DNA of 64,000 nucleotides from Patescibacteria group bacterium (GTDB taxonomy: Bacteria > Patescibacteriota > Kazan-3B-28): positions 3,311-67,310 of the forward strand of contig JAWKSK010000002.1 in assembly GCA_041389145.1 (NCBI GenBank). The letters run 5' to 3'. The notes under the pieces are model-generated. The model did no database searches. It worked only from the letters and a program-made list of their open reading frames with translations, and was not told the DNA's origin. The first letter of the stretch is position 1. The number at the start of each line of letters is the position of its first letter. Below are positions 4,628 through 54,083 of the stretch, piece after piece. Both the position numbers and the translations under genes were made by a program.

Positions 4628-5161
4628 TCACTCATCGTTGGCCTGTGGAATGGTACAGGTCATCGTGAGTAGTTGGTTGGGGTATCCTTTGTCATAGGCA
4701 ACAGCATGTTTTAATGCTGTGTTGAGCATGGCACCATCACCCCTGGGAAGAATTAGGATCATCTCTATCCACCTGCTGGTTTCTTCTTCCCATGAATGCC
4801 ATTGCTTGATAGCAAGGTATCCAGTGTTACCGTCGTATTTCTGGATGGTGATGCCACCCTTTGTACAGCGGTAGGTTTTGGGGTCACCGAAGATTGATAC
4901 TTTGACGTACTTGCCGTCGTAAGTCATCTGTTCGATTGCCCCATGGACTACAGGTGTCCAGAAATTTCTCTCGGGCAACTGCGCGCTGCCTTTGCCATCC
5001 AGGAAGTCCTGGAGGATGGAGGTTTCGGCTGGGTCGGTGTTGTACTCTTCCCAGGCGACATTGATTCTTCTGCCATAGGCAGAAGCAGCAATAAGGATCA
5101 CAATGAAGATGATCCACTTGATTGTTCTGCTCTTGGGTCTTCTGACCTTTGAACCTCTCAT
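4628..5161 (-). CDS. Hypothetical membrane-anchored/secreted protein
   Basis: Start trimmed to MRGSKVRRPK because of an AAGGGG RBS about 8 nt upstream. Basic N-tail then TM (WIIFIVILIAASAYG). Visibly higher G+C than neighbours. No recognisable family. Confidence 0.45.
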   Translation of the reverse strand: MRGSKVRRPKSRTIKWIIFIVILIAASAYGRRINVAWEEYNTDPAETSILQDFLDGKGSAQLPERNFWTPVVHGAIEQMTYDGKYVKVSIFGDPKTYRCTKGGITIQKYDGNTGYLAIKQWHSWEEETSRWIEMILILPRGDGAMLNTALKHAVAYDKGYPNQLLTMTCTIPQANDE

Positions 5162-5331
5162 TAGATTTCCCCTTTGCTTCCACCCAGTTCCTGGGTAGGG
5201 AAGCGATAATCTCAACCCTTTTGAAAGTTCATTGGTAGTGCTAGAATTGCATTACCAATCTCGCTTTGATTATACACTAATTATTGGTTCTTGTCAATGA
5301 AAATCCGCTCTGGTACACTGTTTTTAAGGAT

Positions 5332-7104
5332 ATGAAAGACATTAGAAATTTCTGTATTATTGCCCATATTGACCACGGTAAATCTACCTTGGCAGATAGA
5401 CTATTGGAAAAGACCGAAACAGTAACTGCTCGAGAAATGAAAGAGCAGCTTTTGGATACTATGGATTTGGAGCGGGAAAGAGGGATTACTATCAAGCTTC
5501 AGCCTGTAAGGATGAAGTATAAAGGGTATACCTTGAATTTGATTGATACCCCTGGTCACGTAGATTTTACATATGAGGTTTCAAGGTCTTTGGCCGCTGT
5601 TGAAGGCGCAATTTTGCTAGTAGATGCAACCCAAGGAATTGAAGCTCAAACCTTAGCAAACTTGAACTTGGCTTTAGAGCATGATTTAGAAATTATTCCA
5701 GCAATTAATAAGATTGATTTACCGGCAGCTGATCCGGAAAGAATCATCAATGAACTTGAATCTGTGATTGGAATTAAGAGAGAGGAAGTACTGTTGGTTT
5801 CTGGTAAGACTGGGGATGGGGTAATGGAGCTTTTGGATGCGGTGGTAGAAAGAGTTCCTGAACCAAAGGGGAATGAAAGTGCTGAACTGAGAGGATTGGT
5901 ATTTGATTCATACTTTGATCCATTCCGTGGAGTAGTAGCATATGTGCGCATTATGGATGGTGAGATTAAGTCTGGCCAGAAGATTAGAATGATGGCATCT
6001 GGAGCAGAAGCAGAGGTAATGGAAACAGGATTCTTCATGCCAAAGTTAACCAAACAAAATGAACTTGAAACAGGTCAGATTGGGTATGTGGCAACTGGAT
6101 TAAAAGAGGTAAGTAAGGTGCGCGTTGGTGATACTATCACTGGTGTTGCAGAAAACCCTAGTCCATTGCCCGGATACAAGCCGGCCGCTCCATTTGTATA
6201 TGCTGGGTTGTTTACAGTTGATAATGCAGACTTTCCTCAATTGCGTGAGGCATTGGATAAGTTGCAGTTGAGTGATTCTGCTCTGGTATTTGAACCGGAA
6301 AGTTCTCCAGCATTAGGGTTTGGATTCCGGTGTGGATTTTTGGGCTTGTTGCACATGGAGATTGTGCAAGAAAGATTGGAGCGTGAATTTAATTTAGACT
6401 TAGTAACAACAACTCCAAGTGTAAGTTACAAAATTGTGACTGCACGTGGGCATGAAGAAAAAACAATTCATAATCCTACTGAACTACCTGAGTCTAACTT
6501 TTATATTTCCATCTCAGAACCTTGGATTAAGTTAGAGATTGTGACACCTAATAGTTATCTTGGTGGAGTGATGCAGTTAATCCAGGGAAGACGTGGGGTG
6601 CAGGTCGATATTAAGTATTTAGATGCAGATCGAGTACTGGCTATCTATGAGATTCCATTAGCATCCGTTATCACCGATTTTTATGATCAGTTAAAAAGTA
6701 TTAGCTCCGGGTATGCTTCTTTGACCTATGAAATGATTGGGTTTAGAGAAGGGGATTTGGTAAAGGTGGATGTGCTATTAAATGGTGATGTAGTAGATAC
6801 CTTGTCAGTGATTGTGCACAAGAGTGAAGTGCAAAGGATTGGCAACCAGGTAACTACTAAGTTGAAAGAACTGTTGCCCAAGCAGAGCTTTAAGATTGTG
6901 ATTCAAGCAGCTATTGGTGGCAGAATTATTTCGAGATCAGAAATTGCCCCGTTTAGAAAAGATGTAACAGCTAAACTGTATGGGGGAGATGTAACCCGTA
7001 AAAATAAACTGTTAGACAAACAGAAGAAGGGTAAAAAGCGGATGAAAATGGTGGGTAAGGTGGAAATCCCTCAGGCAGCATTCATGAAAATGCTTGAGAA
7101 GTAG
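5332..7104 (+). CDS. lepA: Elongation factor 4 (LepA)
   Basis: Start at MKDIRNF (in-frame upstream extension in the ORF track rejected). GTPase motifs AHIDHGKST, DTPGH, NKID; conserved LepA C-terminal domain. Confidence 0.95.
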   Translation: MKDIRNFCIIAHIDHGKSTLADRLLEKTETVTAREMKEQLLDTMDLERERGITIKLQPVRMKYKGYTLNLIDTPGHVDFTYEVSRSLAAVEGAILLVDATQGIEAQTLANLNLALEHDLEIIPAINKIDLPAADPERIINELESVIGIKREEVLLVSGKTGDGVMELLDAVVERVPEPKGNESAELRGLVFDSYFDPFRGVVAYVRIMDGEIKSGQKIRMMASGAEAEVMETGFFMPKLTKQNELETGQIGYVATGLKEVSKVRVGDTITGVAENPSPLPGYKPAAPFVYAGLFTVDNADFPQLREALDKLQLSDSALVFEPESSPALGFGFRCGFLGLLHMEIVQERLEREFNLDLVTTTPSVSYKIVTARGHEEKTIHNPTELPESNFYISISEPWIKLEIVTPNSYLGGVMQLIQGRRGVQVDIKYLDADRVLAIYEIPLASVITDFYDQLKSISSGYASLTYEMIGFREGDLVKVDVLLNGDVVDTLSVIVHKSEVQRIGNQVTTKLKELLPKQSFKIVIQAAIGGRIISRSEIAPFRKDVTAKLYGGDVTRKNKLLDKQKKGKKRMKMVGKVEIPQAAFMKMLEK

Positions 7105-17892: not shown

Positions 17893-18129
17893 AGTACTTG
17901 CAAAATTAATCTTTTAAAACGAGGTGAATTTGGAGCGAAAGCTTCATAGACGGGTGCAAAATATTGCAGCTGTTTTTACATCATTCTAGCGATTGATTTT
18001 ACGCCCTTTTCCAATCAGTAAGTACTTAGATATCCTTTAGAGTTAATTATTTTTGGGCTTACTTATTAAGTAAGCTAACAGTTGGAATCATCCGGACGCC
18101 TATTTATAGGTGTCACGGTTTCAACTTTT

Positions 18130-19594
<1,465 letters not shown>

Positions 19595-19744
19595 AGGGAG
19601 AAAGATTGATAGTAGGTAACCTTGACCTTGTGTCGGTTATACAACTATCTATCTCTAGATGTAGTCGATGCGCTTTGTAAACGGCTTGTGAACAAAGCGT
19701 AGGGGATATCTAAGTACTTATTGGTTAGAAGAGGATATACGATT

Positions 19745-19776
19745 AACGGCTCACGAAAGTGAGCCGTTAATTTATG
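19745..19776. terminator. Stem-loop downstream of 16S and downstream of the convergent minus ORF 19791-20201
   Basis: aacggctcac gaaa gtgagccgtt followed by aatttat. Confidence 0.4.
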
Positions 19777-19790
19777 TACTAATTGGTGGT

Positions 19791-20201
19791 TTAGCGCCAG
19801 TAGCCGATAATGGCTGCCATGGCGATGAGGGAAACCAACCAGTATCCTGCGTTTATGAACCAATATGTCCAAGGTTTTTGTTCCCAAGTGACTGCACCCA
19901 TGGTGATAGGCACAAAGAAGCCTAACCATGCCCAGAATGCGGTTGAGATGGCGCTCTGGACAGTGATTTCAATCCCGAAGCCTTGGGCTGCGAGATAAAT
20001 GAAGTGGGAGAGGATGTAGGCCATTAGGAAGCCTGTGATGATCATAAGAACCCAGCTGATAACTGGTGTGTTCTTCATATTCACATTGGCAATCTTGGAC
20101 CAGTAATCACCAAAAACTTTAGGAGAATACCAAATAGATCCAATGACCATATTAGAAACCACGGCTGCTAGAATTGCTAGATAGTTTACAGGAATATCCA
20201 T
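19791..20201 (-). CDS. Small polytopic membrane protein (DUF1761-like)
   Basis: 136 aa, four TM helices, motif IGSIWYSPKVFGDYW resembles DUF1761 proteins. Confidence 0.45.
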   Translation of the reverse strand: MDIPVNYLAILAAVVSNMVIGSIWYSPKVFGDYWSKIANVNMKNTPVISWVLMIITGFLMAYILSHFIYLAAQGFGIEITVQSAISTAFWAWLGFFVPITMGAVTWEQKPWTYWFINAGYWLVSLIAMAAIIGYWR

Positions 20202-20279
20202 ATTGAGGATGGAGTAAATATTATTGATTACATTATAGGATAAAAACTAAAAAACATCCGTTGTGGATGTTTTTAGCAT

Positions 20280-20356
20280 TGGTGGACCTGCGGGGATTCG
20301 AACCCCGGACCCCCTGCTTGCAAAGCAGGTGCTCTAGCCAACTGAGCTACAGGCCC
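20280..20356 (-). tRNA. tRNA-Ala(TGC)
   Basis: GGGCCTGTAGCTCAGTTGGCTAGAGCACCTGCTTTGCAAGCAGGGGGTCCGGGGTTCGAATCCCCGCAGGTCCACCA with a G3-U70 pair. Confidence 0.9.
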
Positions 20357-20396
20357 AATGTGTTAATAAACGAGCTTTTGCAAGCTCATATGGATT

Positions 20397-20612
20397 TTAT
20401 ATACCTAAGAAGCCTAAGTCAATAAAGTTAAGCATAATTAGGAGCCCAAGAAGGATTCCAATAATGCCAAATAGGAAGTAGGCGTAGTAGGTACTACCCA
20501 GATATCTTTCTGCCCAAGCTATCTGTAATCCGACTACTTCAGTGACTTTCTTGTAGTTGATTGCCAATAAGAGGCCGAGTACAAACAAAACGATCCCAAT
20601 AAAAAATTTCAT
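20397..20612 (-). CDS. Hypothetical small membrane protein
   Basis: 71 aa, two hydrophobic helices. Confidence 0.3.
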   Translation of the reverse strand: MKFFIGIVLFVLGLLLAINYKKVTEVVGLQIAWAERYLGSTYYAYFLFGIIGILLGLLIMLNFIDLGFLGI

Positions 20613-20696
20613 AACTAGATTATATCAGGTTGGAATTGTATTGATAGGTACTGGATTTTTTGCTATTTTAACTGTATTCTAAAACACGTTAGAGAA

Positions 20697-20773
20697 GGGC
20701 ATATAGCTCAGCTGGTTAGAGCGCAGTCCTGATAAGACTGAGGTCCCTGGTTCGAATCCAGGTATGCCCACCA
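20697..20773 (+). tRNA. tRNA-Ile(GAT)
   Basis: GGGCATATAGCTCAGCTGGTTAGAGCGCAGTCCTGATAAGACTGAGGTCCCTGGTTCGAATCCAGGTATGCCCACCA. Confidence 0.9.
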
Positions 20774-43652: not shown

Positions 43653-44507
43653 ATGAGCATATTTAAGGAACTGGTTGGACAAGAAGCAGTAAAGCGGACG
43701 CTGGAGCGTCACATTCAGAGGGGGAATTTGCCTCAGGCTTTAATCTTTGCTGGTCCAGCTGGGGTAGGTAGAACAACAGCTGCTAAGATTTTGGCAAAGA
43801 CATTGCATGGAAATCAGTCGGATACTCATCCGGATACCTTTTGGTTTGCGGAAAGAGTATTGGATAAGCGGGACCGGAAAATTGCCTCACCGATAAAAGA
43901 AACAGCGGATGAGATGGTGAAGTTTTTGTCATTAACTCCAATGGTGTCTAAACACAAGATTGCAATTGTAGACATGGGTGACGATTTAAGTACTGAAGCC
44001 CAAAATACTTTACTTAAAACCTTAGAAGAACCAAGAGCTAATAGTTTGATGATACTAGTGGTTAGTGATGAACACAGATTATTGCCTACAATTGTTTCAA
44101 GAGCTCAGGTAATGAGGTTCGTACCACTTAATAATAGTGAGATTAAAACCATAGTTCCGGCTGCTAGTGATGAGATGGTGAGGTATGCAGGAGGAAGTAT
44201 CAGACGGATTATGCAATTGACTCAAGGCCAGGAAGAGTTTGAAAAAGCTCGGAATGTGTATGAGTTCTGGATGAACTTGGATGAACAGAGTACAGAAAAC
44301 AGATTGAGGATTGCAGAAGAGCTGAAAGATAGGGAAGAGGCCATTGCATTCTTAGAAGCAGGGATACGAGTGTGTAGAACTCAACTGTTAGAAGAGGATG
44401 GAATTGAGATGACAGAAAAGATAGAACAGTTGGAATTGGCGATCGAAAAGATTAATGCCAATGCCAATTTGAGATTGGCTCTGGATGCAGTTTTGCTTGT
44501 GATATAA
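43653..44507 (+). CDS. holB: DNA polymerase III delta-prime subunit (HolB)-like clamp-loader subunit
   Basis: LIFAGPAGVGRTTAAKILAKTLH P-loop-like box, SRC-type region VSRAQVMRF, about 285 aa. Confidence 0.75.
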   Translation: MSIFKELVGQEAVKRTLERHIQRGNLPQALIFAGPAGVGRTTAAKILAKTLHGNQSDTHPDTFWFAERVLDKRDRKIASPIKETADEMVKFLSLTPMVSKHKIAIVDMGDDLSTEAQNTLLKTLEEPRANSLMILVVSDEHRLLPTIVSRAQVMRFVPLNNSEIKTIVPAASDEMVRYAGGSIRRIMQLTQGQEEFEKARNVYEFWMNLDEQSTENRLRIAEELKDREEAIAFLEAGIRVCRTQLLEEDGIEMTEKIEQLELAIEKINANANLRLALDAVLLVI

Positions 44508-45199: not shown

Positions 45200-45274
45200 G
45201 CCCAAGTAGCTCAGGGGTAGAGCACTCCCATGGTAAGGGAGGGGTCACGAGTTCAAATCTCGTCTTGGGCTCCA
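45200..45274 (+). tRNA. tRNA-Thr(GGT)
   Basis: GCCCAAGTAGCTCAGGGGTAGAGCACTCCCATGGTAAGGGAGGGGTCACGAGTTCAAATCTCGTCTTGGGCTCCA. Confidence 0.9.
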
Positions 45275-45279
45275 TGTAA

Positions 45280-45364
45280 GCCGAGGTACCGAAGCGGTCA
45301 AACGGGACTGACTGTAAATCAGTTGGCTATGCCTTCCTAGGTTCGAATCCTAGCCTCGGCACCA
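45280..45364 (+). tRNA. tRNA-Tyr(GTA), long variable arm
   Basis: GCCGAGGTACCGAAGCGGTCAAACGGGACTGACTGTAAATCAGTTGGCTATGCCTTCCTAGGTTCGAATCCTAGCCTCGGCACCA. Confidence 0.9.
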
Positions 45365-45366
45365 TT

Positions 45367-45441
45367 GCCGGCTTAGCTCAGTGGTAGAGCAATCGCTTTG
45401 TAAGCGAAAGGTCATCGGTTCAAGTCCGATAGCCGGCTCCA
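45367..45441 (+). tRNA. tRNA-Thr(TGT)
   Basis: GCCGGCTTAGCTCAGTGGTAGAGCAATCGCTTTGTAAGCGAAAGGTCATCGGTTCAAGTCCGATAGCCGGCTCCA. Confidence 0.9.
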
Positions 45442-45460
45442 CTAAATTTAAATAGAAAGA

Positions 45461-45491
45461 AAGCGCGCTTCCCGTAGGTTGCGCGCTTTTT
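45461..45491 (+). terminator. Rho-independent terminator after the tRNA cluster
   Basis: aaagcgcgc ttcccgtaggtt gcgcgctttttcc. Confidence 0.7.
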
Positions 45492-45511
45492 CCAAATTGA
45501 GGGGCAGCTGG

Positions 45512-45919
45512 TTAGGCTGCTTTCTTCTCATGAACGAGGATGTCGTCGGGATGGATATGGAGAGGGTATCGGCCATTCCTTAAACCCTCCTTCTCGGTTC
45601 TCGACTTATCATCCTGAGGGGTGGCCGGCATGCCGACCTTTCTCATGACCAGTTCGTGGACGTTCTTGTCGAGCTGCGTACGAGTGAGCTCGGCAATGTC
45701 ATACCGGATTTGCGAGAAATCATCCCAACGGTTGCTGTTCTCGGCAATCACTTGGCGAATAGATTGAGCGACCGCATTCTGGATGCCGGTATTCTTGAGA
45801 ACATGATAGGTGACGCAGACAACAGCTGTATCACCATTCGAGATCGCTACTTCAAGCTCTATGCTGAACGCAGAGAACTCATCAAGGATAGGGTCAGCTA
45901 TCCGAAAACTGCTACTCAT
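45512..45919 (-). CDS. Hypothetical protein, visibly GC-rich relative to neighbours
   Basis: 135-aa ORF with no motif; about 50% or more G+C by eye against an about 40% background. Confidence 0.4.
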   Translation of the reverse strand: MSSSFRIADPILDEFSAFSIELEVAISNGDTAVVCVTYHVLKNTGIQNAVAQSIRQVIAENSNRWDDFSQIRYDIAELTRTQLDKNVHELVMRKVGMPATPQDDKSRTEKEGLRNGRYPLHIHPDDILVHEKKAA

Positions 45920-46041
45920 TTTCCCTCCGACGGAATGTGCAAATTTGATTTACCTGTTTATAGGTTCGTTTATAATATGTAATTAACAGCTTTAGGTCAA
46001 GGATTTTATGGTTTGGGGCTGGATTATTTCAGAATTAGCTG

Positions 46042-46070
46042 TTGACATCTATAGGAGATGGGGGCATAAT
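46042..46070 (+). promoter_or_regulatory. Sigma-70-like promoter upstream of rplK
   Basis: TTGACA-17 nt-CATAAT, 34 nt upstream of the rplK GTG start. Confidence 0.5.
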
Positions 46071-46103
46071 TTCCTAAGTAAAAAAGAATAAGCAAATAAT
46101 CTC

Positions 46104-46529
46104 GTGGCAAAGAAAGTTAAATCAGTTATTAAATTGCAGTGCGAGGCTGGTAAAGCAACTCCAGCTCCACCTGTTGGAACCGTTTTGGGTCCTACTGGTA
46201 TTGCAATGCAAGATTTCTGTCAGCAGTTTAATGACAGAACCAAAGATCAGATGGGATCTATTATCCCAGCTGTAATTACTATCTACGAAGACAGATCTTT
46301 TGATTTCATCACTAAGCAACCTCCAGCAGCTGAGCTAATCAAGCACGCCTTGAAGTTAAGCAAGGGTTCTGGTGTTCCTAACAAGGAAAAGGTGGCTAAG
46401 ATGACTCAGGCACAGCTTCAAGAAGTGGCTGAAAGAAAGATGCCTGACTTAAACGCAATTGATATTGAGGCAGCAAAGAAGATTATCGCCGGTACTGCCA
46501 GAAATATGGGTGTGGAAATAGTAGATTAA
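46104..46529 (+). CDS. rplK: 50S ribosomal protein L11
   Basis: [12 protein letters not shown]...[14 protein letters not shown]...; 141 aa; GTG start. Confidence 0.95.
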
Positions 46530-46547
46530 TAATGAAAGGGGGACATC

Positions 46548-46877
46548 ATGGCTCAAAACCACGGTATCGTTAGAACAATTTATCTGTATCTGTTCGCGTT
46601 AGTTGGTTTGTTCCTGTTCGTGTTTAGTACTGTGAGTTTGGTGAGTACAACCTTAAATCGGTATGTGTTCCCAACAGAGTACGTTAGATATGACATTTCT
46701 AAACCAGTAGATGGTGAAGAAAATGTGATATCTGAAGAAGAACAAGAAGCAAACTTTATCAAGCAACAGGATAATGACTTCAAGCGAGGAGTTAACGGTT
46801 CTGTACCAGGTGTCATTATTGGTTACTTGTTGTGGATGTTCCACTGGAAGGTAATCACCAAAGATCACAAAAGTTAG
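46548..46877 (+). CDS. Hypothetical two-TM membrane protein inserted between rplK and rplA
   Basis: 109 aa; two hydrophobic helices flank an acidic loop; RBS-like aaagggggacatcATG. Confidence 0.4.
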   Translation: MAQNHGIVRTIYLYLFALVGLFLFVFSTVSLVSTTLNRYVFPTEYVRYDISKPVDGEENVISEEEQEANFIKQQDNDFKRGVNGSVPGVIIGYLLWMFHWKVITKDHKS

Positions 46878-46944
46878 ACAATATATTATTCGAGGTGGGA
46901 GCTTAGCAGTCGGCTAAGTGCTTGACCACGCAGGAGATAAAGAA

Positions 46945-47691
46945 ATGGCAGAAGCCAAGAAAGCAAAGAAGACCGAATCTAAGAAGGATAAAGTCCAGAA
47001 GTTTGGTCATGGTAAGAAGTACAACGAGCTTGTACAAAAAGTAGATAAGGAGAAGTTGTATGACTTGTCCGAAGCTTTGGATTTAGTGAAGGAAACTTCA
47101 CCAACCAAGTTTGATGCAACTGTTGAGTTGCACATGCAAATGGGATTGGATCCAAAGACTCCAGAACAAAACATTAGAGGTACAGTCACTCTTCCAGCAG
47201 GAAGTGGTAAGGTGCCAAAGATTTTGGTACTGGCTGAAGAAGCTGACGCTGAAAAAGCAAAGAAGGCAGGTGCTGACTTTGCAGGGTTAGACGACATGAT
47301 TGAGAAGATTGGTACTGGTTGGTTAGATTTTGATTTAGTAATTGCTACACCTGCAGCTATGCCTAAGGTGGGTAAGATGGGTCAAACTCTTGGTACCAAG
47401 GGATTGATGCCTAACCCAAAGTCAGGAACTGTATCTGCAGACCCAGCTAAGGCGGTAGAGGAGTTTAAGAAGGGTAAGGTAGAATACCGCTTAGATAAGG
47501 ATGCAATTGTGCACATGGGTATTGGTAAGGTTTCTTTCTCAGCAGATGACTTGAAGAAGAACTTTATGGCCGTGTTTGCTGCAATTAGATCTGCTAAGCC
47601 ATCTAGTGCTAAGGGAACCTACATGAAGAGATTGAGCTTATCCTCTTCTATGGGTCCTGGTATTAAGGTAGATATCAACACAGTCGTCTAA
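46945..47691 (+). CDS. rplA: 50S ribosomal protein L1
   Basis: Start at the ATG after a CAGGAG RBS (8-nt spacing); the ORF-track GTG extension was rejected. L1 fold signature (GTVTLPAGSGK...GKMGQTLGTKGLMPNPKSGTV). Confidence 0.95.
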   Translation: MAEAKKAKKTESKKDKVQKFGHGKKYNELVQKVDKEKLYDLSEALDLVKETSPTKFDATVELHMQMGLDPKTPEQNIRGTVTLPAGSGKVPKILVLAEEADAEKAKKAGADFAGLDDMIEKIGTGWLDFDLVIATPAAMPKVGKMGQTLGTKGLMPNPKSGTVSADPAKAVEEFKKGKVEYRLDKDAIVHMGIGKVSFSADDLKKNFMAVFAAIRSAKPSSAKGTYMKRLSLSSSMGPGIKVDINTVV

Positions 47692-47709
47692 GATTGGTTC
47701 AAAGTTTTA

Positions 47710-47745
47710 AAAAGGAGCTGGCTAGTTGCCAGCTCCTTTGTTATG
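47710..47745. terminator. Bidirectional terminator after rplA and after the minus-strand ORF 47756-48181
   Basis: aaaa ggagctggc tagtt gccagctcc tttgttatg. Confidence 0.6.
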
Positions 47746-47755
47746 AACAGTGAAC

Positions 47756-48181
47756 TCAGGTGCAAACCGTTTTACGTTCTGCCTTGAAGGTAAGGTCGAT
47801 TACCAGTTCACGGTTCATTTGCTCAACCCACTCAGTTCGTTGCCGTTGTCTTTGAATGACTAGATCTGGGCTGTACGGTAGCTCGCTAGTTTCAAGGACT
47901 TCAGCAGGGAGTGAACCGTTAATAAACCGTTCAGCGATAACCCTCTTGCAACACTCCCAGACCAGAACCTGTCCATCTGTGAGTTTAATTGCATGAAGGT
48001 AGTAGTGATCAGGATGGTGGTCACATTCACCAATATTTGCCCCGCCACCATCAAAGATGTAAGGGTAGTGATCTGTCCCACATGAACATCTGATCCTTTG
48101 TCCGACTATCATAACAAAGGCAATCTTCTCAAAGAAAATTTGAGCAAGAGGGTCGGTCTTGGTCATATCTAGGTGCATCAT
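47756..48181 (-). CDS. Hypothetical Cys/His-rich protein (possible zinc binder), GC-rich
   Basis: 141 aa with clustered C/H (RCSCGTDH...ECDHHPDHYYLH...WECCKR). Weak resemblance to deaminase-type zinc sites but no HAE/PCxxC. Confidence 0.35.
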   Translation of the reverse strand: MMHLDMTKTDPLAQIFFEKIAFVMIVGQRIRCSCGTDHYPYIFDGGGANIGECDHHPDHYYLHAIKLTDGQVLVWECCKRVIAERFINGSLPAEVLETSELPYSPDLVIQRQRQRTEWVEQMNRELVIDLTFKAERKTVCT

Positions 48182-48253
48182 TTCCTCCTGTACTGGATTG
48201 GGGTTAGTATCAAATATATTGATATCTATGTCAATTTGTTACAATTGACTGTC

Positions 48254-48685
48254 ATGAAGGTAAAAGTATCCAGAATAGATGTAAATCTGCCGATGCCGAT
48301 GTATCAGACCAAGGGGTCTGCCGGGTTTGATATATATGCTCGTGAAGAGGTAACCATCATGCCTGGAGAGCTGGTTAGAATTCCAACCAATCTGATAGTG
48401 GATACTCCAGTGGGATATTTCTTGATGCTGTCTTTAAGATCTTCTACCCCTAAAAAGAAACCAGGATTAGTGGTGCCACATGGAGTTGGAGTAGTGGATT
48501 CGGATTACAATGGACCAGATGATGAGGTATTGATGCAGGTGTTAAATACTGGAGATATTGCAGTAACGATAGAAAAGGGTGAACGGTTTGCTCAGGGGGC
48601 ATTTGTGAAAATAGATATGGCAACATTTATAGATACACCAAGACCAGTAGGGATGAGTCGAGGTGGATTTGGAAGTACAGGATAA
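48254..48685 (+). CDS. dut: dUTP diphosphatase (trimeric dUTPase)
   Basis: Start trimmed to MKVKVS. dUTPase motifs GSAGFDI, RSS, GVVDSDYNG. Putative TTGATA-15 nt-TACAAT promoter immediately upstream suggests a leaderless or short-leader mRNA. Confidence 0.85.
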   Translation: MKVKVSRIDVNLPMPMYQTKGSAGFDIYAREEVTIMPGELVRIPTNLIVDTPVGYFLMLSLRSSTPKKKPGLVVPHGVGVVDSDYNGPDDEVLMQVLNTGDIAVTIEKGERFAQGAFVKIDMATFIDTPRPVGMSRGGFGSTG

Positions 48686-48710
48686 TCTGGGGGAGAAAGG
48701 GAAGCCAAAA

Positions 48711-49388
48711 GTGAAGATTGATTTAAATGAAGAGCAGTTACAAAGATTTATTGTATTTGAAGGGGTAGATGGGAGTGGCCAGGATACTCAAGCACAGATA
48801 TTTGCAGATCATTTAAAAAAGCAGGGGTATAAAGTGTGGTTAACATCAGAACCTAGTAAGGACTTGGCATCTTTGGGTGTAACGGTTAGATATATTCTCA
48901 CCAACCAACCAGATTTTCCAGCTCATAGCTTACAGTTGCTGATGGTTGCAGATAGAGCAATGCATGTGGAGCAGATTAAGAAGTACCTGTCAGATGGATA
49001 TGTAGTGATTTGTGTTAGGTATATGTATTCCACATTGGCTTTTGGATTTGCTGATGGAATCGATATTAATTGGCTAGTGGAACTGAATAGATATTTTCCA
49101 CGTCCAGCAGCTGTTGCATATTTAGATTTAGCAGCCGAAAGTTCAATGCAGAGAGTAGAGAAGAGATCGCGAGAAAAAGGCCAGCCATTGGATCGGTTTG
49201 AAACAGTAGCTAACCTGGAAAAGGTGAGAAATGCATATTTAGACTTACAAAAGCTATGTCCTGAGATAAGGGTGGTGGATGCCTTTGGAACAATTGAAGA
49301 AGTAGCAACTAGAGTGCGTGAAACTATTGGTGAGACTATTGGACTCGAGAGTAAAGAACAGAAACCGTTGGATTTGCAGATGAGTTAG
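48711..49388 (+). CDS. Thymidylate-kinase-like protein with non-canonical P-loop
   Basis: FIVFEGVDGSGQDTQ aligns to the Tmk motif IV(F/I)EG(I/L)DG(A/S)GK(S/T)T but with Lys to Gln and Ser/Thr to Asp. The DR(Y/H)-like LLMVADRAMH and lid region are present. GTG start after a GGAGAAAGGG RBS; the ORF-track start at 48663 overlaps dut. Confidence 0.6.
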   Translation: MKIDLNEEQLQRFIVFEGVDGSGQDTQAQIFADHLKKQGYKVWLTSEPSKDLASLGVTVRYILTNQPDFPAHSLQLLMVADRAMHVEQIKKYLSDGYVVICVRYMYSTLAFGFADGIDINWLVELNRYFPRPAAVAYLDLAAESSMQRVEKRSREKGQPLDRFETVANLEKVRNAYLDLQKLCPEIRVVDAFGTIEEVATRVRETIGETIGLESKEQKPLDLQMS

Positions 49389-49503
49389 TTGGTTTTTCTG
49401 TGGAGCTGTGGTTAACTGTTTGGGTTAAGGAAATTATTATTGGGGGTGTACCTTGGCTAACAAGGGAAGTCCACAGCGTCCATTCTGTGCCAAGCTTGAT
49501 GCA

Positions 49504-50391
49504 ATGATTGGCAAGAAGATCCAGGTCTTAGACCATGGATACATTCGGCTTGTTGACTACATGGGTGTACAGGCCAGCGTAGCTCAAGCTGCCAGGGTTT
49601 CCTATCAGAAGGGAACCAGAAGGACTAGCGAGGATGTTGGTCTGGTTCGTAGGTTATATCGTGATCGTCACACGAGTCCATTGGAACAGCTTGTGATTAC
49701 GTTTGATCTGCGGATGCCAATCTTCGTGATGAGACAGTGGGTTCGACATCGAACTGCTCGTCTGAACGAAGAATCTGCTCGGTATTCTGAACTGGAGTCC
49801 ATTTTCTATCTCCCCAAGAGAGAGAGGATGGTGAGTCAGTCCAAGAAGAACAAGCAGGGAGGAGGTAAACTGCTCGATGATGCAGTTGCCGATCATATTG
49901 CTCAGCTGTTGCTGGGTGGGCAGGATGCGGCAGCTCGTGATTATGCAGAAATGATTAGGGCAGATTACGCCAGGGAGTTGGCACGGATCAACTTGCCACT
50001 CTCAATCTACACGAGAGTGAGGTGGCAGATTGATCTGCACAACCTTCTTCACTTCCTGTCACTGAGAAATGATCCTCATGCCCAGTATGAAATCAGGGTC
50101 TACGCCGAGCTCATTTACGAGAAGTATCTGAAGATCTGGGTGCCTGACATCTGTAGGGCATTTGAGGACCACACGCTCAAGTCTCTCCGCTATTCATTCA
50201 TTGACCAGCAAGTCGTGGAATGGGCAAGGAAGGAGTATTCTGGTGGAAACTGGGTTGATTCTCTGAGGCTGGTGCTGGCAGCCAATCCCAAGGATGAGGA
50301 TTCTCAGTTGTTCAGGCTGGCTAAGCAGTTCAATGTCAGTCCTGGTGAGATTAGCGAGCTGTTATCGAAGCTTGTCTTTCTCGAGAGTTAG
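49504..50391 (+). CDS. thyX: Flavin-dependent thymidylate synthase ThyX
   Basis: ThyX signature RHRTARLNEESARY (RHR-x7-S-x-RY); N-terminus MIGKKIQVLDHGYIRLVDYMG matches ThyX starts. In-frame TTG at 49453 is possible. GC-rich. Confidence 0.85.
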   Translation: MIGKKIQVLDHGYIRLVDYMGVQASVAQAARVSYQKGTRRTSEDVGLVRRLYRDRHTSPLEQLVITFDLRMPIFVMRQWVRHRTARLNEESARYSELESIFYLPKRERMVSQSKKNKQGGGKLLDDAVADHIAQLLLGGQDAAARDYAEMIRADYARELARINLPLSIYTRVRWQIDLHNLLHFLSLRNDPHAQYEIRVYAELIYEKYLKIWVPDICRAFEDHTLKSLRYSFIDQQVVEWARKEYSGGNWVDSLRLVLAANPKDEDSQLFRLAKQFNVSPGEISELLSKLVFLES

Positions 50392-50410
50392 TCTATCGGT
50401 TCGGAGTTGG

Positions 50411-50448
50411 TGTCTTAGGATGCCAGCTCCGATTTTTTTGTTGACACA
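50411..50448 (+). terminator. Rho-independent terminator after thyX
   Basis: cggagttgg tgtcttaggatg ccagctccg atttttttg (one G-U pair in the stem). Confidence 0.6.
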
Positions 50449-50449
50449 G

Positions 50450-50478
50450 ATTGGGTTTTTGCATAAGATGGTCGCAGT
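50450..50478 (+). promoter_or_regulatory. Sigma-70-like promoter for rplJL
   Basis: TTGACA-17 nt-TAAGAT. Confidence 0.5.
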
Positions 50479-50633
50479 CTCCTTTATAGACAGTGGGCAC
50501 AAAAGATAAGCCCCACCGAGAAGGACATAATTAAGCCTTGGGCCAGATTTTGGTCAGATGAGGATTTAATCGTGTTCTGCTCGGTGAGCAGAATTTTTTG
50601 TTGCTCGATATATCAGCTTTAAAAGTTGCAGGT
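50479..50633 (+). promoter_or_regulatory. rplJ 5' leader with attenuator-like hairpin (L10 autoregulatory leader candidate)
   Basis: 155-nt structured leader; hairpin ttctgctc ggtg agcagaa followed by ttttttg at 50575-50600, just upstream of the rplJ ATG. Confidence 0.4.
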
Positions 50634-51164
50634 ATGCCAAAAACACGCCAACAGAAGGCAGAGGTCATTGACTCTCTCACTTCGGCGCTAAAGGCTACTA
50701 CCCACGGGGTGCTGACTGACTTTGATAAGTTGACGATGGCTGACCTTGATGCCTTTAGAGCAACTGCTCGTGAAAAGGGTGTGAAGTATACAGTGGTCAA
50801 ACCAACCTTGGTCCAGATTGCTGCTGAAAATGCAGGAATCACTGGTCTCGACATTGCCAAAACCGGTAAAAGCTACGGCTTAGCCTGGGGTGAAGGTATT
50901 GATGAGGTCGGAATCTCCAAGTTGGTAAATGACTTTGCCAAGAAAAGTGATGATCGGGTGCATATTGCTCTCGGTATCATTGATGGCAAGATCGTTGACG
51001 CCGAGACAGTAAAGCAACTTGCCAGCTTGCCATCTTACGAAGAGTTGATGGCTCGTGTAGTGGGCAGTATGAATGCGCCAATCGGAAACTTTGTCTATTC
51101 CTTGAACTGGAATACTCAGAGCTTCTACAACGTTATAAAAGCAATTCAAGCAAGCAAAGCTTAG
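50634..51164 (+). CDS. rplJ: 50S ribosomal protein L10
   Basis: Start at MPKTRQQKAEVID; the ORF-track TTG extension was rejected. About 176 aa, upstream of rplL. Confidence 0.9.
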   Translation: MPKTRQQKAEVIDSLTSALKATTHGVLTDFDKLTMADLDAFRATAREKGVKYTVVKPTLVQIAAENAGITGLDIAKTGKSYGLAWGEGIDEVGISKLVNDFAKKSDDRVHIALGIIDGKIVDAETVKQLASLPSYEELMARVVGSMNAPIGNFVYSLNWNTQSFYNVIKAIQASKA

Positions 51165-51190
51165 TCTTGAATCTAATCTAGATAATTACT

Positions 51191-51697
51191 ATGGAAGAAA
51201 ACACAACTCCAGAAGAGCAGACTACTCCTGAGGTAGCTGCTGAAGAAACCACTGCTGAAGCTACTGTAGCTGAAGCTCCAGCTGCTGAAGAGAAGAAAGA
51301 AGTAGATACTTCTAACCTCTCTAAGAAAGCTATGGAAGTACTTGATACCGTTTCTGAGATGACCGTTTTGGAACTCGCAGAATTGGTAAAGGTAATGGAA
51401 GATAAGTTTGGTGTATCCGCAGCTCCTGCAGCAGTTGCAGTTGCTGGTGGTGCCGTAGCTGGTGGCGGTGAAGCCGCTGAAGAAAAGGATGAATTCACTG
51501 TTAAGATCACCGATGCTGGTGCTAACAAGATTGCAGTTATTAAGGCTGTACGTGAAGTCACCGAACTCGGTTTGAAGGAAGCTAAGGATCTTGTAGATGC
51601 AGCTCCTGCAACCGTAAAGGAAAACGTTAAGAAGGATGCCGCTAACGAAATGAAGGCAAAGCTTGAAGAAGCTGGTGCCAAGGTAGAACTTGCTTAA
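51191..51697 (+). CDS. rplL: 50S ribosomal protein L7/L12
   Basis: Ala/Glu-rich hinge and conserved C-terminal domain ([38 protein letters not shown]...[11 protein letters not shown]). Confidence 0.95.
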
Positions 51698-51710
51698 TTA
51701 AGCTGATAAT

Positions 51711-51740
51711 CATAAAGCCCCTCAACTGAGGGGTTTTATG
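51711..51740. terminator. Rho-independent terminator after rplL (shared with the convergent minus ORF)
   Basis: aaagcccctc aact gaggggtttt atgatgc. Confidence 0.6.
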
Positions 51741-52158
51741 ATGCTTTATTGCTAAGTTGGATCACCCAGTATTCTTGAACCTCTTTTCTTCTAAGAGCTT
51801 CACAACGGTGATTGCCGTCGGTAATATCGCTTGGGTTTCCCCAGAAATCAGTGGTGATAATGGGTGGAGGAACCCATCCTTCATCAATAAGTCTTATGAA
51901 TTTGGAAATATTGTATTCCCAATCATTATCCGTCCATTTACGATTACTGCCTGGCGGTCCGACTTGAATATTTAGAGAGTCTAGGGGTTCGAGTGTTAGA
52001 GACTGAACTAAAACTTTGTTTTCTAGGTTCTCAAGAACTTCTGCGAGCTTGAGGTTGTTACCTTCATGTTTGAGATAATCAACGCACCATTCTTGTAGAC
52101 GATTTTCTTGATAGGCCTGAGTGGCTGATTCGATATTCCATTGATGGTGGTTAATCAT
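51736..52158 (-). CDS. Small protein with C-terminal ParB/sulfiredoxin-like (DGxHR) domain
   Basis: C-terminal GWVPPPIITTDFWGNPSDITDGNHRCEALRRKEVQEYWVI matches the ParB N-terminal domain/Srx pattern. Start set at MINHHQW to avoid overlap with tgt; the ORF track extends to 52266. Confidence 0.45.
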   Translation of the reverse strand: MINHHQWNIESATQAYQENRLQEWCVDYLKHEGNNLKLAEVLENLENKVLVQSLTLEPLDSLNIQVGPPGSNRKWTDNDWEYNISKFIRLIDEGWVPPPIITTDFWGNPSDITDGNHRCEALRRKEVQEYWVIQLSNKAS

Positions 52159-52191
52159 AGGGTTATTGTATACGAAATGTGTTAATGTGTT

Positions 52192-53298
52192 TTGGATATG
52201 GCAATAGAATTTGATATTAAACACAGGCAAAAAAGAGCCAGGTTGGGTGTCGTTCACACTGACCATGGTAGTTTTACAACTCCCACGGTAACCACTAACT
52301 TTACACCAGCATTGCTGAGAACTGGATTAACTCCAGATGAAGTAGCAGAGCTGGGAGTTGAGTTGTTGTTGGTCAATACATTGCATGCAGAACTAGCAGG
52401 GGTAGATGACGTGCATCGGTTTTTGAATTGGAATGGTCCAGTAATTGCTGATTCGGGTGGGTATCAGATGATTAGTTTGGCGCAGAAGTTAAAGATCCAA
52501 AACGATGGAGTCGAATTTGAAATGGATGGGAAGCAGATTAAGATGACTCCAGAAAAAGTTTTAGAGATACAGAGAAGAATTGGGATCGATATGATGATGC
52601 CCTTAGATTTTGTAGTAGATGTGAGACGGCATAATGTCTGGACTTTTGTAAGTGCGGTATTAAAAACAGAGGCTTGGTTTAAGCAAGCATACAAAACTGG
52701 TTCAGAAAATTTGTACTACATAGTACAGGGTGGAACTAGTAGTTTGGCTCGGAGTATTAGTTTAAGGTTTGCAAATAAATGGTTTAGTAGGGGAGTGCAG
52801 CTAATGGCACTGGGAGGAATTTCTTTAGGTGAATCATCTAATGCAATTCATCAGACAGTGGAATATTGTTGTGCAAGATTACCAGAAAAAGCTCCACGGC
52901 ATTTATTGGGAGTGGGGAGGCCAGTTGATTTAGTAAAGGGTGTGATGGCAGGTATTGATACTTTTGATTGCGTTGCCATTACCAGAGAAGCTAGACATGG
53001 AAGATTATGGGTAGATGGGGGAATGGTGAGATTGACCCAGGGTGGATATGTAGATGATAATCGGGTAATTGAAGATGGATGTGATTGTCCAACATGTATG
53101 GGTGGGGTTACCAGAGCAAGTTTGCGAGCTGGTCTTAAATCTAAAGATGCAAGATTGAAGAACAAGACTCAAATACTGCTGATGAAACATAATATTAGGT
53201 ATGTAATGAGGCTAGTGGAGCAACTGAGGGAAGAGATCAAAAATGGAGACCTAGAGCGGTTTTATTCTGAATGGGTAAAGCGTAATGTGGTTGACTAA
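52192..53298 (+). CDS. tgt: Queuine/preQ1 tRNA-ribosyltransferase (tRNA-guanine transglycosylase)
   Basis: Aligns by eye along its length with bacterial Tgt: ARLGVVHTDHGSFTTP; ADSGGYQ (DSGGFQ); LGVGRPVDLVKGVMAGIDTFDCV; zinc site CDCPTC...H. Confidence 0.85.
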   Translation: MDMAIEFDIKHRQKRARLGVVHTDHGSFTTPTVTTNFTPALLRTGLTPDEVAELGVELLLVNTLHAELAGVDDVHRFLNWNGPVIADSGGYQMISLAQKLKIQNDGVEFEMDGKQIKMTPEKVLEIQRRIGIDMMMPLDFVVDVRRHNVWTFVSAVLKTEAWFKQAYKTGSENLYYIVQGGTSSLARSISLRFANKWFSRGVQLMALGGISLGESSNAIHQTVEYCCARLPEKAPRHLLGVGRPVDLVKGVMAGIDTFDCVAITREARHGRLWVDGGMVRLTQGGYVDDNRVIEDGCDCPTCMGGVTRASLRAGLKSKDARLKNKTQILLMKHNIRYVMRLVEQLREEIKNGDLERFYSEWVKRNVVD

Positions 53299-53399: not shown

Positions 53400-54083
53400 G
53401 TGAGTAATAAGGAGAAGGCTGTGTTTTCTAACATGTTGTATGAACTCAGGTACTTCCTGGGCAAGAACTGGCCGATTGTCAGCGTGATTGCTCTTGGGGT
53501 GATCCTGTTCTTCACCCAGAGCACGTGGATGCCGATGGTGGAAATGATGTCAAAGCCGACCGCGGCACATGCTCAGGCCAGCGTTGACACTGGAGCTCAG
53601 AGTCTGATGGCCGAGATGGCTGCAAACCCGGATGACCCCAACTTCGGCGGAGGTGCTGTGAGTAGCCCTGATGATTCAAGCGTGCCAGCCAAGGGTGGAC
53701 GGGTGAATGCTTCTGACCTGACACCATGTCGCAATCAGCCAGTTATGGGTTCAGAGCTGGGTCCTGCCTATCTTGGTGCCAACGTTCAACTTCCAGCTAC
53801 CATTAACCGTATCAGTTCCGATACTATCTTCTTCAAGTGTAGCGGTGATATAGCCAGCAAGGTTGAATACGATGGTTTGTACTATGTGCAAATCATGGAC
53901 GAACCGGTGAAGTGGGCGGGGTCCAGTTCCTATGGTTCGGCGGCAGTGGCTCGGCCATGTGAAGTGAAGAAGGTGCGGGGTGGCGTTGAATGTACTCTGG
54001 TTGGAATGGAGCGAGGCAAGTCCTACCTGATACCAGATGCGGCATCTAACACCAGCTCAAGAGCCTACCTGGTTCGCAAGTAG
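53400..54083 (+). CDS. Hypothetical secreted/membrane-anchored protein, strongly GC-rich
   Basis: 227 aa; N-terminal TM/signal anchor (WPIVSVIALGVILFF); four Cys; G+C clearly above all surrounding genes (about 55-58% by eye). Confidence 0.45.
   Translation: MSNKEKAVFSNMLYELRYFLGKNWPIVSVIALGVILFFTQSTWMPMVEMMSKPTAAHAQASVDTGAQSLMAEMAANPDDPNFGGGAVSSPDDSSVPAKGGRVNASDLTPCRNQPVMGSELGPAYLGANVQLPATINRISSDTIFFKCSGDIASKVEYDGLYYVQIMDEPVKWAGSSSYGSAAVARPCEVKKVRGGVECTLVGMERGKSYLIPDAASNTSSRAYLVRK

Follow-up and report, generated by a model that had tools for sequence, protein, structure and literature searches.

The locus described here lies in a 64-kb stretch of Patescibacteria DNA (the window), in which the ribosomal protein genes rplK and rplA are separated from rplJ and rplL by a block of 2.7 kb (47756-50478). 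The map of open reading frames (ORFs), together with Pfam and NCBIfam searches, gave the following order: rplA, a bidirectional terminator, an ORF rich in cysteine and histidine (Cys/His) on the minus strand, dut, a tmk-like gene, thyX, a strong terminator, and the promoter and leader of rplJ. All the elements listed in an earlier annotation made from the letters alone (the sequence-only reading) were found where it had placed them or nearby. That reading took the block for a horizontally acquired, possibly phage-derived, cassette for dTTP synthesis. To related loci (labeled L001-L102) we had access through genome and metagenome scans with L1 and through contig look-ups of Tmk, ThyX and Cys/His homologues, and their genes were annotated by tblastn and Pfam. 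From this comparison, we consider it likely that the block is a native, lineage-typical neighborhood of a Kazan-3B-28-like clade of Patescibacteria, in which the gap between rplKA and rplJL is a dedicated slot for pyrimidine-deoxynucleotide genes and the thyX position has been swapped.

The gene rplA (L1; 46918-47691, plus strand; PF00687 at 4.4e-61), which was the query for the related loci, closes the upstream ribosomal operon. The hairpin that follows it (47711-47739) is a perfect 12-bp inverted repeat with a 5-nt loop; since it folds on both strands (dG of −25 and −21.9 kcal/mol, z of −6.6 and −5.1) and has U-rich tails on both sides, it would act as a bidirectional intrinsic terminator that also serves the convergent Cys/His gene. 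This gene (47756-48181, minus strand, 140-141 aa) has its probable start at the second ATG (48178), which a perfect AGGAGG precedes, and is separated from dut by a putative divergent control region (48182-48253). On the plus strand follow dut (48254-48685), the tmk-like gene (48711-49388), a spacer (49389-49452) with the ribosome-binding site GGGGGTG, and thyX (49453-50391). Homologues led us to re-set the start codons of dut (ATG 48254, not 48173), tmk (GTG 48711, not 48663) and rplJ (ATG 50634). The terminator that the sequence-only reading had assigned to the block was recovered on the plus strand at 50401-50439, with a 14-bp stem (50401-50432) followed by U7 (dG −23.9 kcal/mol, z −6.1), and directly after it the promoter scan placed a promoter-like sequence for rplJ, TTGACA-17-TAAGAT (50441-50469, plus strand). 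Because no terminator was found within the dut-tmk gap (25 nt) or the tmk-thyX gap (64 nt), dut, tmk and thyX would form a single operon with its own terminator, and the slot would thus consist of a divergent pair, the small Cys/His gene on one side and the three co-directional genes on the other. A candidate promoter for thyX alone, within the tmk-thyX spacer (49412-49440), was dropped, as its −10 box is not kept in relatives.

The identification of dut as a trimeric dUTPase gene and of thyX as a flavin-dependent thymidylate synthase gene, both proposed before from short motifs, was corroborated by profile and structure searches. Dut matches PF00692 at 2.6e-18 (66.5 bits, cut-off 22) and PDB dUTPases down to 4.6e-20, and it has all five motifs of the trimeric enzymes (SAGFDIY, LRSS, GVVDSDYNG, RFAQG and SRGGFGSTG); its alignment to PDB 3h6x extends through the C-terminal GGFGSTG. 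The NCBIfam scores of Dut are just under the cut-offs (95.7 vs. 102.55 bits for TIGR00576, 88.3 vs. 103 for NF001862). ThyX matches PF02511 at 6.8e-50 (169.9 bits), TIGR02170 with 179.8 bits (cut-off 87.9) and PDB 6j61 at 4.9e-55, and the signature RHR-x7-S-x-RY is present as RHRTARLNEESARY, aligned to RHRTASVNEISGRY of 6j61. In the expected pathway, Dut would convert dUTP to dUMP and PPi, ThyX would convert dUMP to dTMP with FAD, NADPH and methylene-tetrahydrofolate, and the Tmk-like protein would convert dTMP to dTDP, the last step being doubtful in a protein without a Walker A lysine. The coherent dUTPase-ThyX-Tmk route of the earlier proposal therefore stands as regards the identities of Dut and ThyX, but its final step is in doubt owing to this missing lysine, which had been overlooked. 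No second copy of dut, tmk or thyX, and no thyA, folA or dCMP deaminase gene, was found within the window.

The L1 query retrieved contigs of candidate division Kazan (RIFCSPHIGHO2_01_FULL_44_14) and other Patescibacteria at 69-73% identity. The ThyX of the window is 100% identical to a protein in NCBI that comes from the metagenome-assembled genome of a Patescibacteria group bacterium. In every genome in which both ends of the rplA-rplJ gap are visible, that is, the window and eight relatives (9/9; L1 about 67-78%), the gap contains dut. Its company varies: dCMP deaminase-dut-tmk in L002; 23S-IVP-dut-thyA-folA in L003 (Kazan), followed on the opposite strand by a dCMP-deaminase fusion and a cytidylyltransferase; the Cys/His gene (minus strand), dut, tmk and, on the minus strand, a ThyX of 608 aa in L004; dut-dCTP deaminase in L006; two ORFs of unknown type, dut and tmk in L013; tmk (with the Walker A lysine, 207 aa), thyX, dut, a Zn-ribbon ORF and a second tmk (with glutamine instead, 227 aa) in L014; dut-tmk in L016; and the Cys/His gene, dCMP deaminase, dut, tmk and, on the minus strand, a ThyX of 246 aa in L017. 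The shorter contigs L001, L012 and L102 show tmk-thyX-rplJ-rplL. In the outgroups L009 and L010 (L1 48-50%), rplA is directly followed by rplJ, in a canonical contiguous rplKAJL. The presence of dut in the gap of all relatives with both ends visible indicates that the interruption is a shared, old trait of the clade. Moreover, across the nine genomes the pairwise identities of Dut and L1 are correlated (Pearson 0.78, Spearman 0.67) as strongly as those of L1 and L10 (Pearson 0.76, Spearman 0.54), as expected for co-inherited neighbors. Dut would thus be encoded by the invariant, vertically inherited anchor of the slot, around which dCMP deaminase, dCTP deaminase, tmk, thyA plus folA and several kinds of thyX come and go. 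Vertical inheritance at this position would usually extend to the tmk-like gene, and the last position before the rplJ promoter would be a replacement hot spot for thymidylate synthase. In the literature we found no account of dut, tmk or thyX between rplA and rplJ, although our coverage was incomplete and this is weak evidence.

The composition of the genes agrees with this division. The window has a GC content of 42.7%, and its 60 genes have a mean GC of 0.427 ± 0.031 and a mean GC at third codon positions (GC3) of 0.396 ± 0.066. The only deviant gene of the block is thyX (GC 0.495, z +2.2; GC3 0.553, z +2.4). The Cys/His ORF (GC 0.458, z +1.0) is on a par with rplJ and rplL (0.460), and dut (0.413, z −0.4) and tmk (0.405, z −0.7) are slightly under the mean. 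The impression that several genes of the block are visibly richer in GC than the ribosomal genes is thus correct for thyX but not for the others, and since the deviation is confined to thyX, the supposed module of elevated G+C is really one gene. In every relative that carries a thymidylate-synthase gene, the GC3 of this gene exceeds that of its flanks.

The comparison with the closest relatives points to the exchange of thyX as a unit. The window and L012 share L10 at 98%, L12 at 99%, Tmk at 90% and Tgt at 91%, whereas their ThyX proteins are only 51% identical; similarly, the window and L102 share L10 at 99%, L12 at 95%, the Tmk C-terminus at 95% and the rplJ-rplL DNA at 95.9% over 1.3 kb, whereas ThyX is at 45%. 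The ThyX proteins of L012 and L102 are 60% identical to each other, and L001, which is more distant (Tgt 73%), carries a ThyX of the window type at 77%. In the DNA alignment, the 3′ end of tmk, the spacer, the ribosome-binding site and the TTG start codon of thyX are common to the window, L001, L012 and L102. From codon 2 of thyX the similarity breaks down, and it resumes exactly at the T-run before the −35 box of rplJ. The thyX terminator hairpin travels with the allele, and L012 and L102 have unrelated hairpins at that place. On this alignment, thyX appears to have been swapped by whole-gene cassette replacement, from codon 2 to the terminator stem, and the exchange in the genus of the window would most simply be explained by recombination in the conserved flanks, of which the tmk-thyX spacer is the 5′ one. 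Across the relatives, the last position of the slot is occupied by ThyX proteins 45-60% identical, by ThyX types of 246, about 290 or 608 aa, by ThyA with dihydrofolate reductase (DHFR), or by nothing. In the relatives without thyX at this position (L013, L014 and L016), the final codons of the tmk-like gene (..KPLDL..) contain the −35 box of rplJ (TTGACC/TTGACT), and this box would mark the place where thyX was added. The tmk-like protein of the window keeps the same peptide tail (..KPLDL..), and there the −35 DNA motif is destroyed by synonymous changes.

Two other genes within about 10 kb (45.5-54 kb) are also rich in GC, and together with thyX they are the most divergent from those of congeners. 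One (45512-45919, minus strand; GC 0.505, GC3 0.588), between a tRNA cluster and rplK, is an orphan ORF of 135 aa with 46% identity to its L007 counterpart, whose neighbors are at 94-98%. The other (53400-54083; GC 0.532) encodes a membrane-anchored protein of 227 aa with 37% identity to its L012 counterpart (4941-5630), between flanks at about 90%; its N-terminus (VS.KEKA..WMPMVE) and C-terminus (SRAYLV) are kept and the middle is exchanged, and the predicted product looks like a hypervariable surface protein.

The product of the tmk-like gene (plus strand, PF02223 at 2.2e-33, 115.9 bits) scores 131 bits against TIGR00041, above the equivalog cut-off of NCBIfam for dTMP kinase (83.25). Its AlphaFold2 model has a pLDDT score of 89.4 and superimposes on the Thermotoga maritima Tmk 3hjn with a TM-score of 0.90 and a root-mean-square deviation of 1.7 Å; in sequence, the protein matches true Tmks (3hjn, 5.7e-24) better than it does the PPK3 homologue 2plr (2.6e-12). 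The LID region, QRVEKRSREKGQPLDRFE, carries basic residues, R148 and F163-E164 are invariant (DRFE motif), and conservation extends to the residues on the dTMP side and to the arginines of the LID. However, its Walker A sequence, GVDGSGQDTQ, aligns to GIDGSGKSTQ of 3hjn, with the lysine replaced by glutamine and the Ser/Thr by aspartate, so that it departs from the P-loop pattern GxxxxGK[ST]; at this place the solved Tmks in the PDB read GxDGxGK(S/T)TQ. In addition, DRY is changed to VRY, the catalytic arginine and the tyrosine being kept and the aspartate lost, and this change is conserved in the family. The Walker A glutamine occurs without exception in the family (15/15 members, down to 36% identity). 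Among the slots, the Tmk-like protein of L017 also has glutamine, that of L004 has leucine, and that of L002 is a canonical protein with GK; L014 carries a canonical GK Tmk and the glutamine form side by side in one slot, and the slots of L013 and L016 have the glutamine form alone.

The Walker A lysine is generally conserved in P-loop NTPases. One report describes the Walker A Ser/Thr as strictly conserved in these proteins (10.1101/2022.06.23.497301). The tmk-like product is thus predicted to be a conserved Tmk paralogue without the ATP-site lysine and the Mg-binding Ser/Thr; it may still act as a dTMP kinase through a non-canonical mechanism, or it may have lost catalysis or been re-purposed. 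We give about even odds to the possibility that it is not the dTMP kinase of the cell, but acts for instance as a regulatory or scaffold partner of a canonical Tmk or as a nucleotide binder, dTDP being made by an enzyme encoded elsewhere. The replaced Walker A residues and the VRY sequence in all family members, and the pairing of both forms in L014, speak for this idea, and the precedent is PPK3, a pair of exapted dTMPK paralogues, one catalytic and one regulatory (PMC12995831). Against it are the equivalog score, the confident Tmk fold with its retained dTMP-side residues and LID arginines, the lack of another tmk in the window, and the slots of L013 and L016 with the glutamine form only. 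With Tmk (PF02223/TIGR00041) the protein has in common the fold, the LID region, the arginine of DRX and the residues on the dTMP side; like PPK3, it is a Tmk paralogue found alongside a canonical Tmk in at least one genome (L014). Nevertheless, the regulatory subunit rPPK3 loses the DRX arginine (PMC12995831), whereas the Tmk-like protein has lost the Walker A lysine and Ser/Thr to Gln and Asp, and it has no ppx or polyphosphate context. We found no description of a Tmk without the P-loop lysine in the literature, which, with incomplete coverage, is weak evidence. The tmk-holB arrangement is common in bacteria; in the window holB is present (43653-44507), preceded by clpP and a DUF5684 gene, but tmk is not beside it, and the tmk-like gene lies in the ribosomal gap.

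Several alternative explanations for the block and for its thyX were considered. The divergence of ThyX could reflect accelerated evolution in place of one ancestral gene under diversifying selection, instead of replacement, and in agreement with this the four slot ThyX proteins have a common C-terminal extension and fall into one loose clade in a neighbor-joining (NJ) tree, and all four genes have a GC3 of about 0.55. We regard this as very unlikely, because about half of the ThyX residues differ, from one end of the protein to the other with the exception of the catalytic motifs, between flanking DNA that is 96% identical, because the terminator hairpins are unrelated and the breakpoints sharp, and because the ThyX of L012 is nearer to sequences of other organisms in the databases (60-61%) than to that of the window (51%); one of these neighbors sits in an ordinary, large-genome, non-CPR (candidate phyla radiation) bacterium with ppk1 and cheW. 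The whole four-gene block, in turn, could be a recently acquired, phage-derived dTTP cassette inserted between rplA and rplJ, much as the sequence-only reading had favored. The families of dut, tmk and thyX are indeed common in phages (PHROG matches; 910, 436 and 85 phage records), the GC of thyX is raised, the block has its own terminator, and the nearest ThyX from outside the clade (P0003, 53%) is encoded beside ribonucleotide reductase and small unannotated ORFs, in a phage-like context. On its contig (L021), a tight co-directional run of small ORFs precedes the genes for the large and the small (glutaredoxin-fused) subunits of ribonucleotide reductase. Yet dut is in the same gap in all nine genomes with a divergence that tracks that of L1, and the GC of dut and tmk is native or below average. 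Among 50,697 phage genomes (INPHARED), the best identities were 42-48% for ThyX, about 40% for Dut and 31-33% for Tmk, and in IMG/VR ThyX reached at most 50%, whereas cellular homologues are nearer (ThyX 53-54%; Dut 54-68% in relatives); the families of the glutamine-type Tmk and of the Cys/His protein had no match among the 2.9 million viral contigs of IMG/VR. The PHROG matches of the block are to generic enzyme families only, with no phage-specific PHROG, and no phage structural or replication genes neighbor the block. The ORF map contains no integrase or recombinase among the block ORFs, all of which are accounted for, and the repeat search gave no att-like flanking direct repeats; a stretch of 10 nt common to the rplA and thyX terminators (GCCAGCTCC) is not long enough to be interpreted, and the nearest tRNA genes lie 2.3 kb upstream, beyond rplK-rplA, none flanking the block. 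A recent arrival of the whole cassette from a phage is, on these data, exceedingly improbable, and the expectation that phages would hold the closest relatives of its genes was contradicted. What survives of the proposed acquisition concerns thyX only, with its deviant composition, its patchy presence and its replacement between congeners, and not dut or the tmk-like gene. The sequence-only reading had itself named, as evidence against it, the presence of its genes at one place in close relatives with native composition, and for dut and the tmk-like gene this is what was observed. Phage auxiliary nucleotide modules (dut, tmk, thyX or thyA, ribonucleotide reductase) resemble the block in their enzyme families and tight gene packing; they differ in that the block has no phage neighbors, is less similar to phage versions (31-50%) than to cellular ones, and keeps its position in a cellular lineage.

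A further possibility is that the ancestor of the clade acquired a module with dut once, long ago and by horizontal transfer, possibly from a virus, and that vertical descent and local turnover followed. Since the outgroups have canonical rplKAJL, the gap would have been occupied a single time, when the clade arose; mobile elements often carry genes of nucleotide metabolism, and the slot is still accepting new genes. On the other hand, the composition is fully ameliorated, no donor signal was found, and an intragenomic translocation of the dut that the ancestor already had would look no different. We consider this possibility unlikely, although not to the degree of a recent insertion. The interpretation that we prefer, a native slot with an exchangeable thyX position, is close to the fallback of the sequence-only reading, according to which the genes are the host's own sole thymidylate pathway kept in an odd place; the part that agrees with the evidence (synteny, native dut and tmk) is that of an own pathway in an odd place. 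Some observations weigh against our interpretation. In the NJ tree of the 120 best ThyX hits, the four slot alleles and three other sequences form one weakly supported group, and the four alleles are an exclusive clade in only 15/100 bootstrap replicates; from this weak grouping, the donors may be other members of the clade and not foreign phyla. The genes may first have reached the gap in the ancestor of the clade either through translocation or through an ancient transfer. Given the lost Walker A lysine and Ser/Thr, the last step of the pathway may not be catalyzed by the Tmk-like protein. Finally, the promoter scan gave 16 sites against 11.3 ± 3.2 in shuffled sequence, and the terminator scan 7 against 4.5 ± 2.0; because these counts are little above expectation, the operon structure rests on individual hairpins and on conservation.

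A bolder proposal joins two elements: that the slot ThyX is kept hyper-polymorphic by cassette exchange (45-60% identity between flanks of about 96%) under frequency-dependent or antagonist-driven selection, for example by phage or host inhibitors, and that the Tmk-like protein represents an unrecognized with-no-lysine Tmk family, either a non-canonical kinase or a non-catalytic partner or sensor. We regard this as rather doubtful. As a whole, the block is a variation on known phenomena, gene-order change and thyA/thyX displacement, and not a new kind of system. The non-orthologous displacement of thyA and thyX and their lateral transfer have reportedly been observed before (Myllykallio et al. 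2002 and Stern et al. 2010, as cited in PMC10733785). As in that displacement, close relatives show a patchy occurrence of ThyX and of ThyA (with DHFR), for the most part one or the other, and the gene has a foreign composition; here, in contrast, the alternatives share one fixed chromosomal slot beside the rplJ promoter, and the exchange is allele for allele, as a cassette, within a genus and with base-pair-sharp boundaries. The slot thus offers a clean natural case of non-orthologous (ThyA plus DHFR vs. ThyX) and xenologous (ThyX allele) displacement at one fixed locus with defined breakpoints, useful for studying the renewal of essential genes in reduced-genome symbionts. The order rplKAJL, which serves as a syntenic marker, is among the most conserved in bacteria. 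Its clade-wide interruption is a rare genomic change and a possible synapomorphy for the Kazan-like Patescibacteria, and it is also a caution that such interruptions of ribosomal clusters need not be recent islands. The conserved loss of the Walker A lysine in the only tmk-like gene seen raises the question of how dTDP is synthesized in these organisms; this with-no-lysine paralogue and the orphan Cys/His protein are the loose ends of note.

The Cys/His protein had no match in Pfam, NCBIfam or PHROG. Only four relatives, all short, were found among 1.84 billion representative proteins, and one among 5.8 billion word-indexed clusters, which suggests that the predicted product belongs to a tiny, clade-restricted family. 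Residues C32, C34, C53, H55, H56, C77 and C78 are invariant in it, and in every context recovered (the window, L004, L017/L018 and L019) the gene is divergent from the operon led by dut. The intergenic region of the window contains a minus-strand promoter-like sequence, TTGACA-17-GATACT (48234-48206), with a conserved TTGAC(A) −35 box, and a 7-bp inverted repeat, GTCAATT-N6-AATTGAC, within 48182-48253; the corresponding intergenic regions of L004, L017 and L019 also contain the GTCAA core. The protein is predicted to be zinc-binding and functionally tied to the dut operon, as a candidate regulator or accessory factor. A structure model from the 4-sequence alignment was unusable (pLDDT 44.8). 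A fifth HMMER match, P0140 (1241 aa, E-value 1.6e-6), was discarded as spurious, being an RTX-like repeat protein with only the short PDHY...DGT.W in three copies; permissive Pfam matches of the family (Zn_ribbon_5 at 0.078, Pterin_4a at 0.24) were taken as noise, and an NrdR-like or cytidine-deaminase-like identity was rejected on motifs. Unrelated small Cys-rich ORFs recur beside dut: apart from the Cys/His family, a DnaJ-type CxxCxGxG protein is encoded in L013 (4019-4513) and a zinc-ribbon protein with CxxC...CxxC in L014 (5561-5920).

Downstream of the block, the rplJ promoter is conserved in L001, L012 and L102, and TTGAC-N17-TA(G/A)(G/A)AT recurs in other relatives. The leader RNA of rplJ, about 160 nt long (50476-50633, plus strand), has an attenuator-like hairpin (50574-50594) followed by U6. 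It is conserved in 11 loci, with a helix GTGGGC/GCCCAC that shows compensatory changes and a pairing of CCGAGA with TCTCGG (fold z −4.1). The Rfam L10_leader (RF00557) had no match at E ≤ 1 in 45400-52300, so this conserved leader may be an undescribed, clade-specific variant of the L10 leader; three weak Rfam matches in that region were set aside as one terminator hairpin and chance matches. The leader is followed on the plus strand by rplJ (L10; 50634-51164; PF00466), whose MPKTRQQK start is common to the relatives, and by rplL (L7/L12; 51191-51697; 62-99% identity in relatives), with a terminator at 51709-51742.

In the canonical arrangement, rplKA and rplJL are transcribed separately, and a terminator or promoter and an autoregulatory L10 leader lie between them. 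The window resembles the rplKAJL(-rpoBC) cluster of E. coli and B. subtilis in that the order rplK-rplA ... rplJ-rplL is kept and a terminator, a promoter and a conserved leader are present; unlike the window, that cluster has neither 2.7 kb of deoxynucleotide-metabolism genes in the gap nor a DUF5671 gene between rplK and rplA, both of which are clade-specific. This last gene (46548-46877, plus strand), outside the thymidylate block, encodes a membrane protein of 109 aa (PF18920 at 2.2e-7) and breaks the ribosomal cluster at a second place, in a manner specific to a sub-clade: it occupies the same position in L007, L013, L014 and L016 and is absent in L002, L003, L004 and L017. The first gene of the upstream ribosomal operon, rplK (L11; 46104-46529, plus strand), is 70-96% identical at the protein level to its counterparts in relatives and is preceded by the promoter-like TTGACA-17-CATAAT (46042-46070, plus strand) recovered in the promoter scan. 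Upstream of it (45200-46104) lie tRNA-Thr, tRNA-Tyr, tRNA-Thr and a terminator hairpin (45460-45489), without the tuf, secE and nusG genes that are usual in bacteria. Farther away, in region 18128-20773, a 16S rRNA gene (18128-19592) has no 23S rRNA gene following it within the window and lies near tRNA-Ala (opposite strand) and tRNA-Ile (same strand), so the rRNA operon is unlinked. Lastly, the gap between rplL and tgt is a second variable slot: it holds nothing in L001, L013 and L016, an ORF of 176 aa on the minus strand in the window (51736-52266), an ORF of 140 aa in L012 (3277-3699), these two having a DGNHR motif and no Pfam match, and a gene for a Ham1-like ITPase in L014 (7951-8493).

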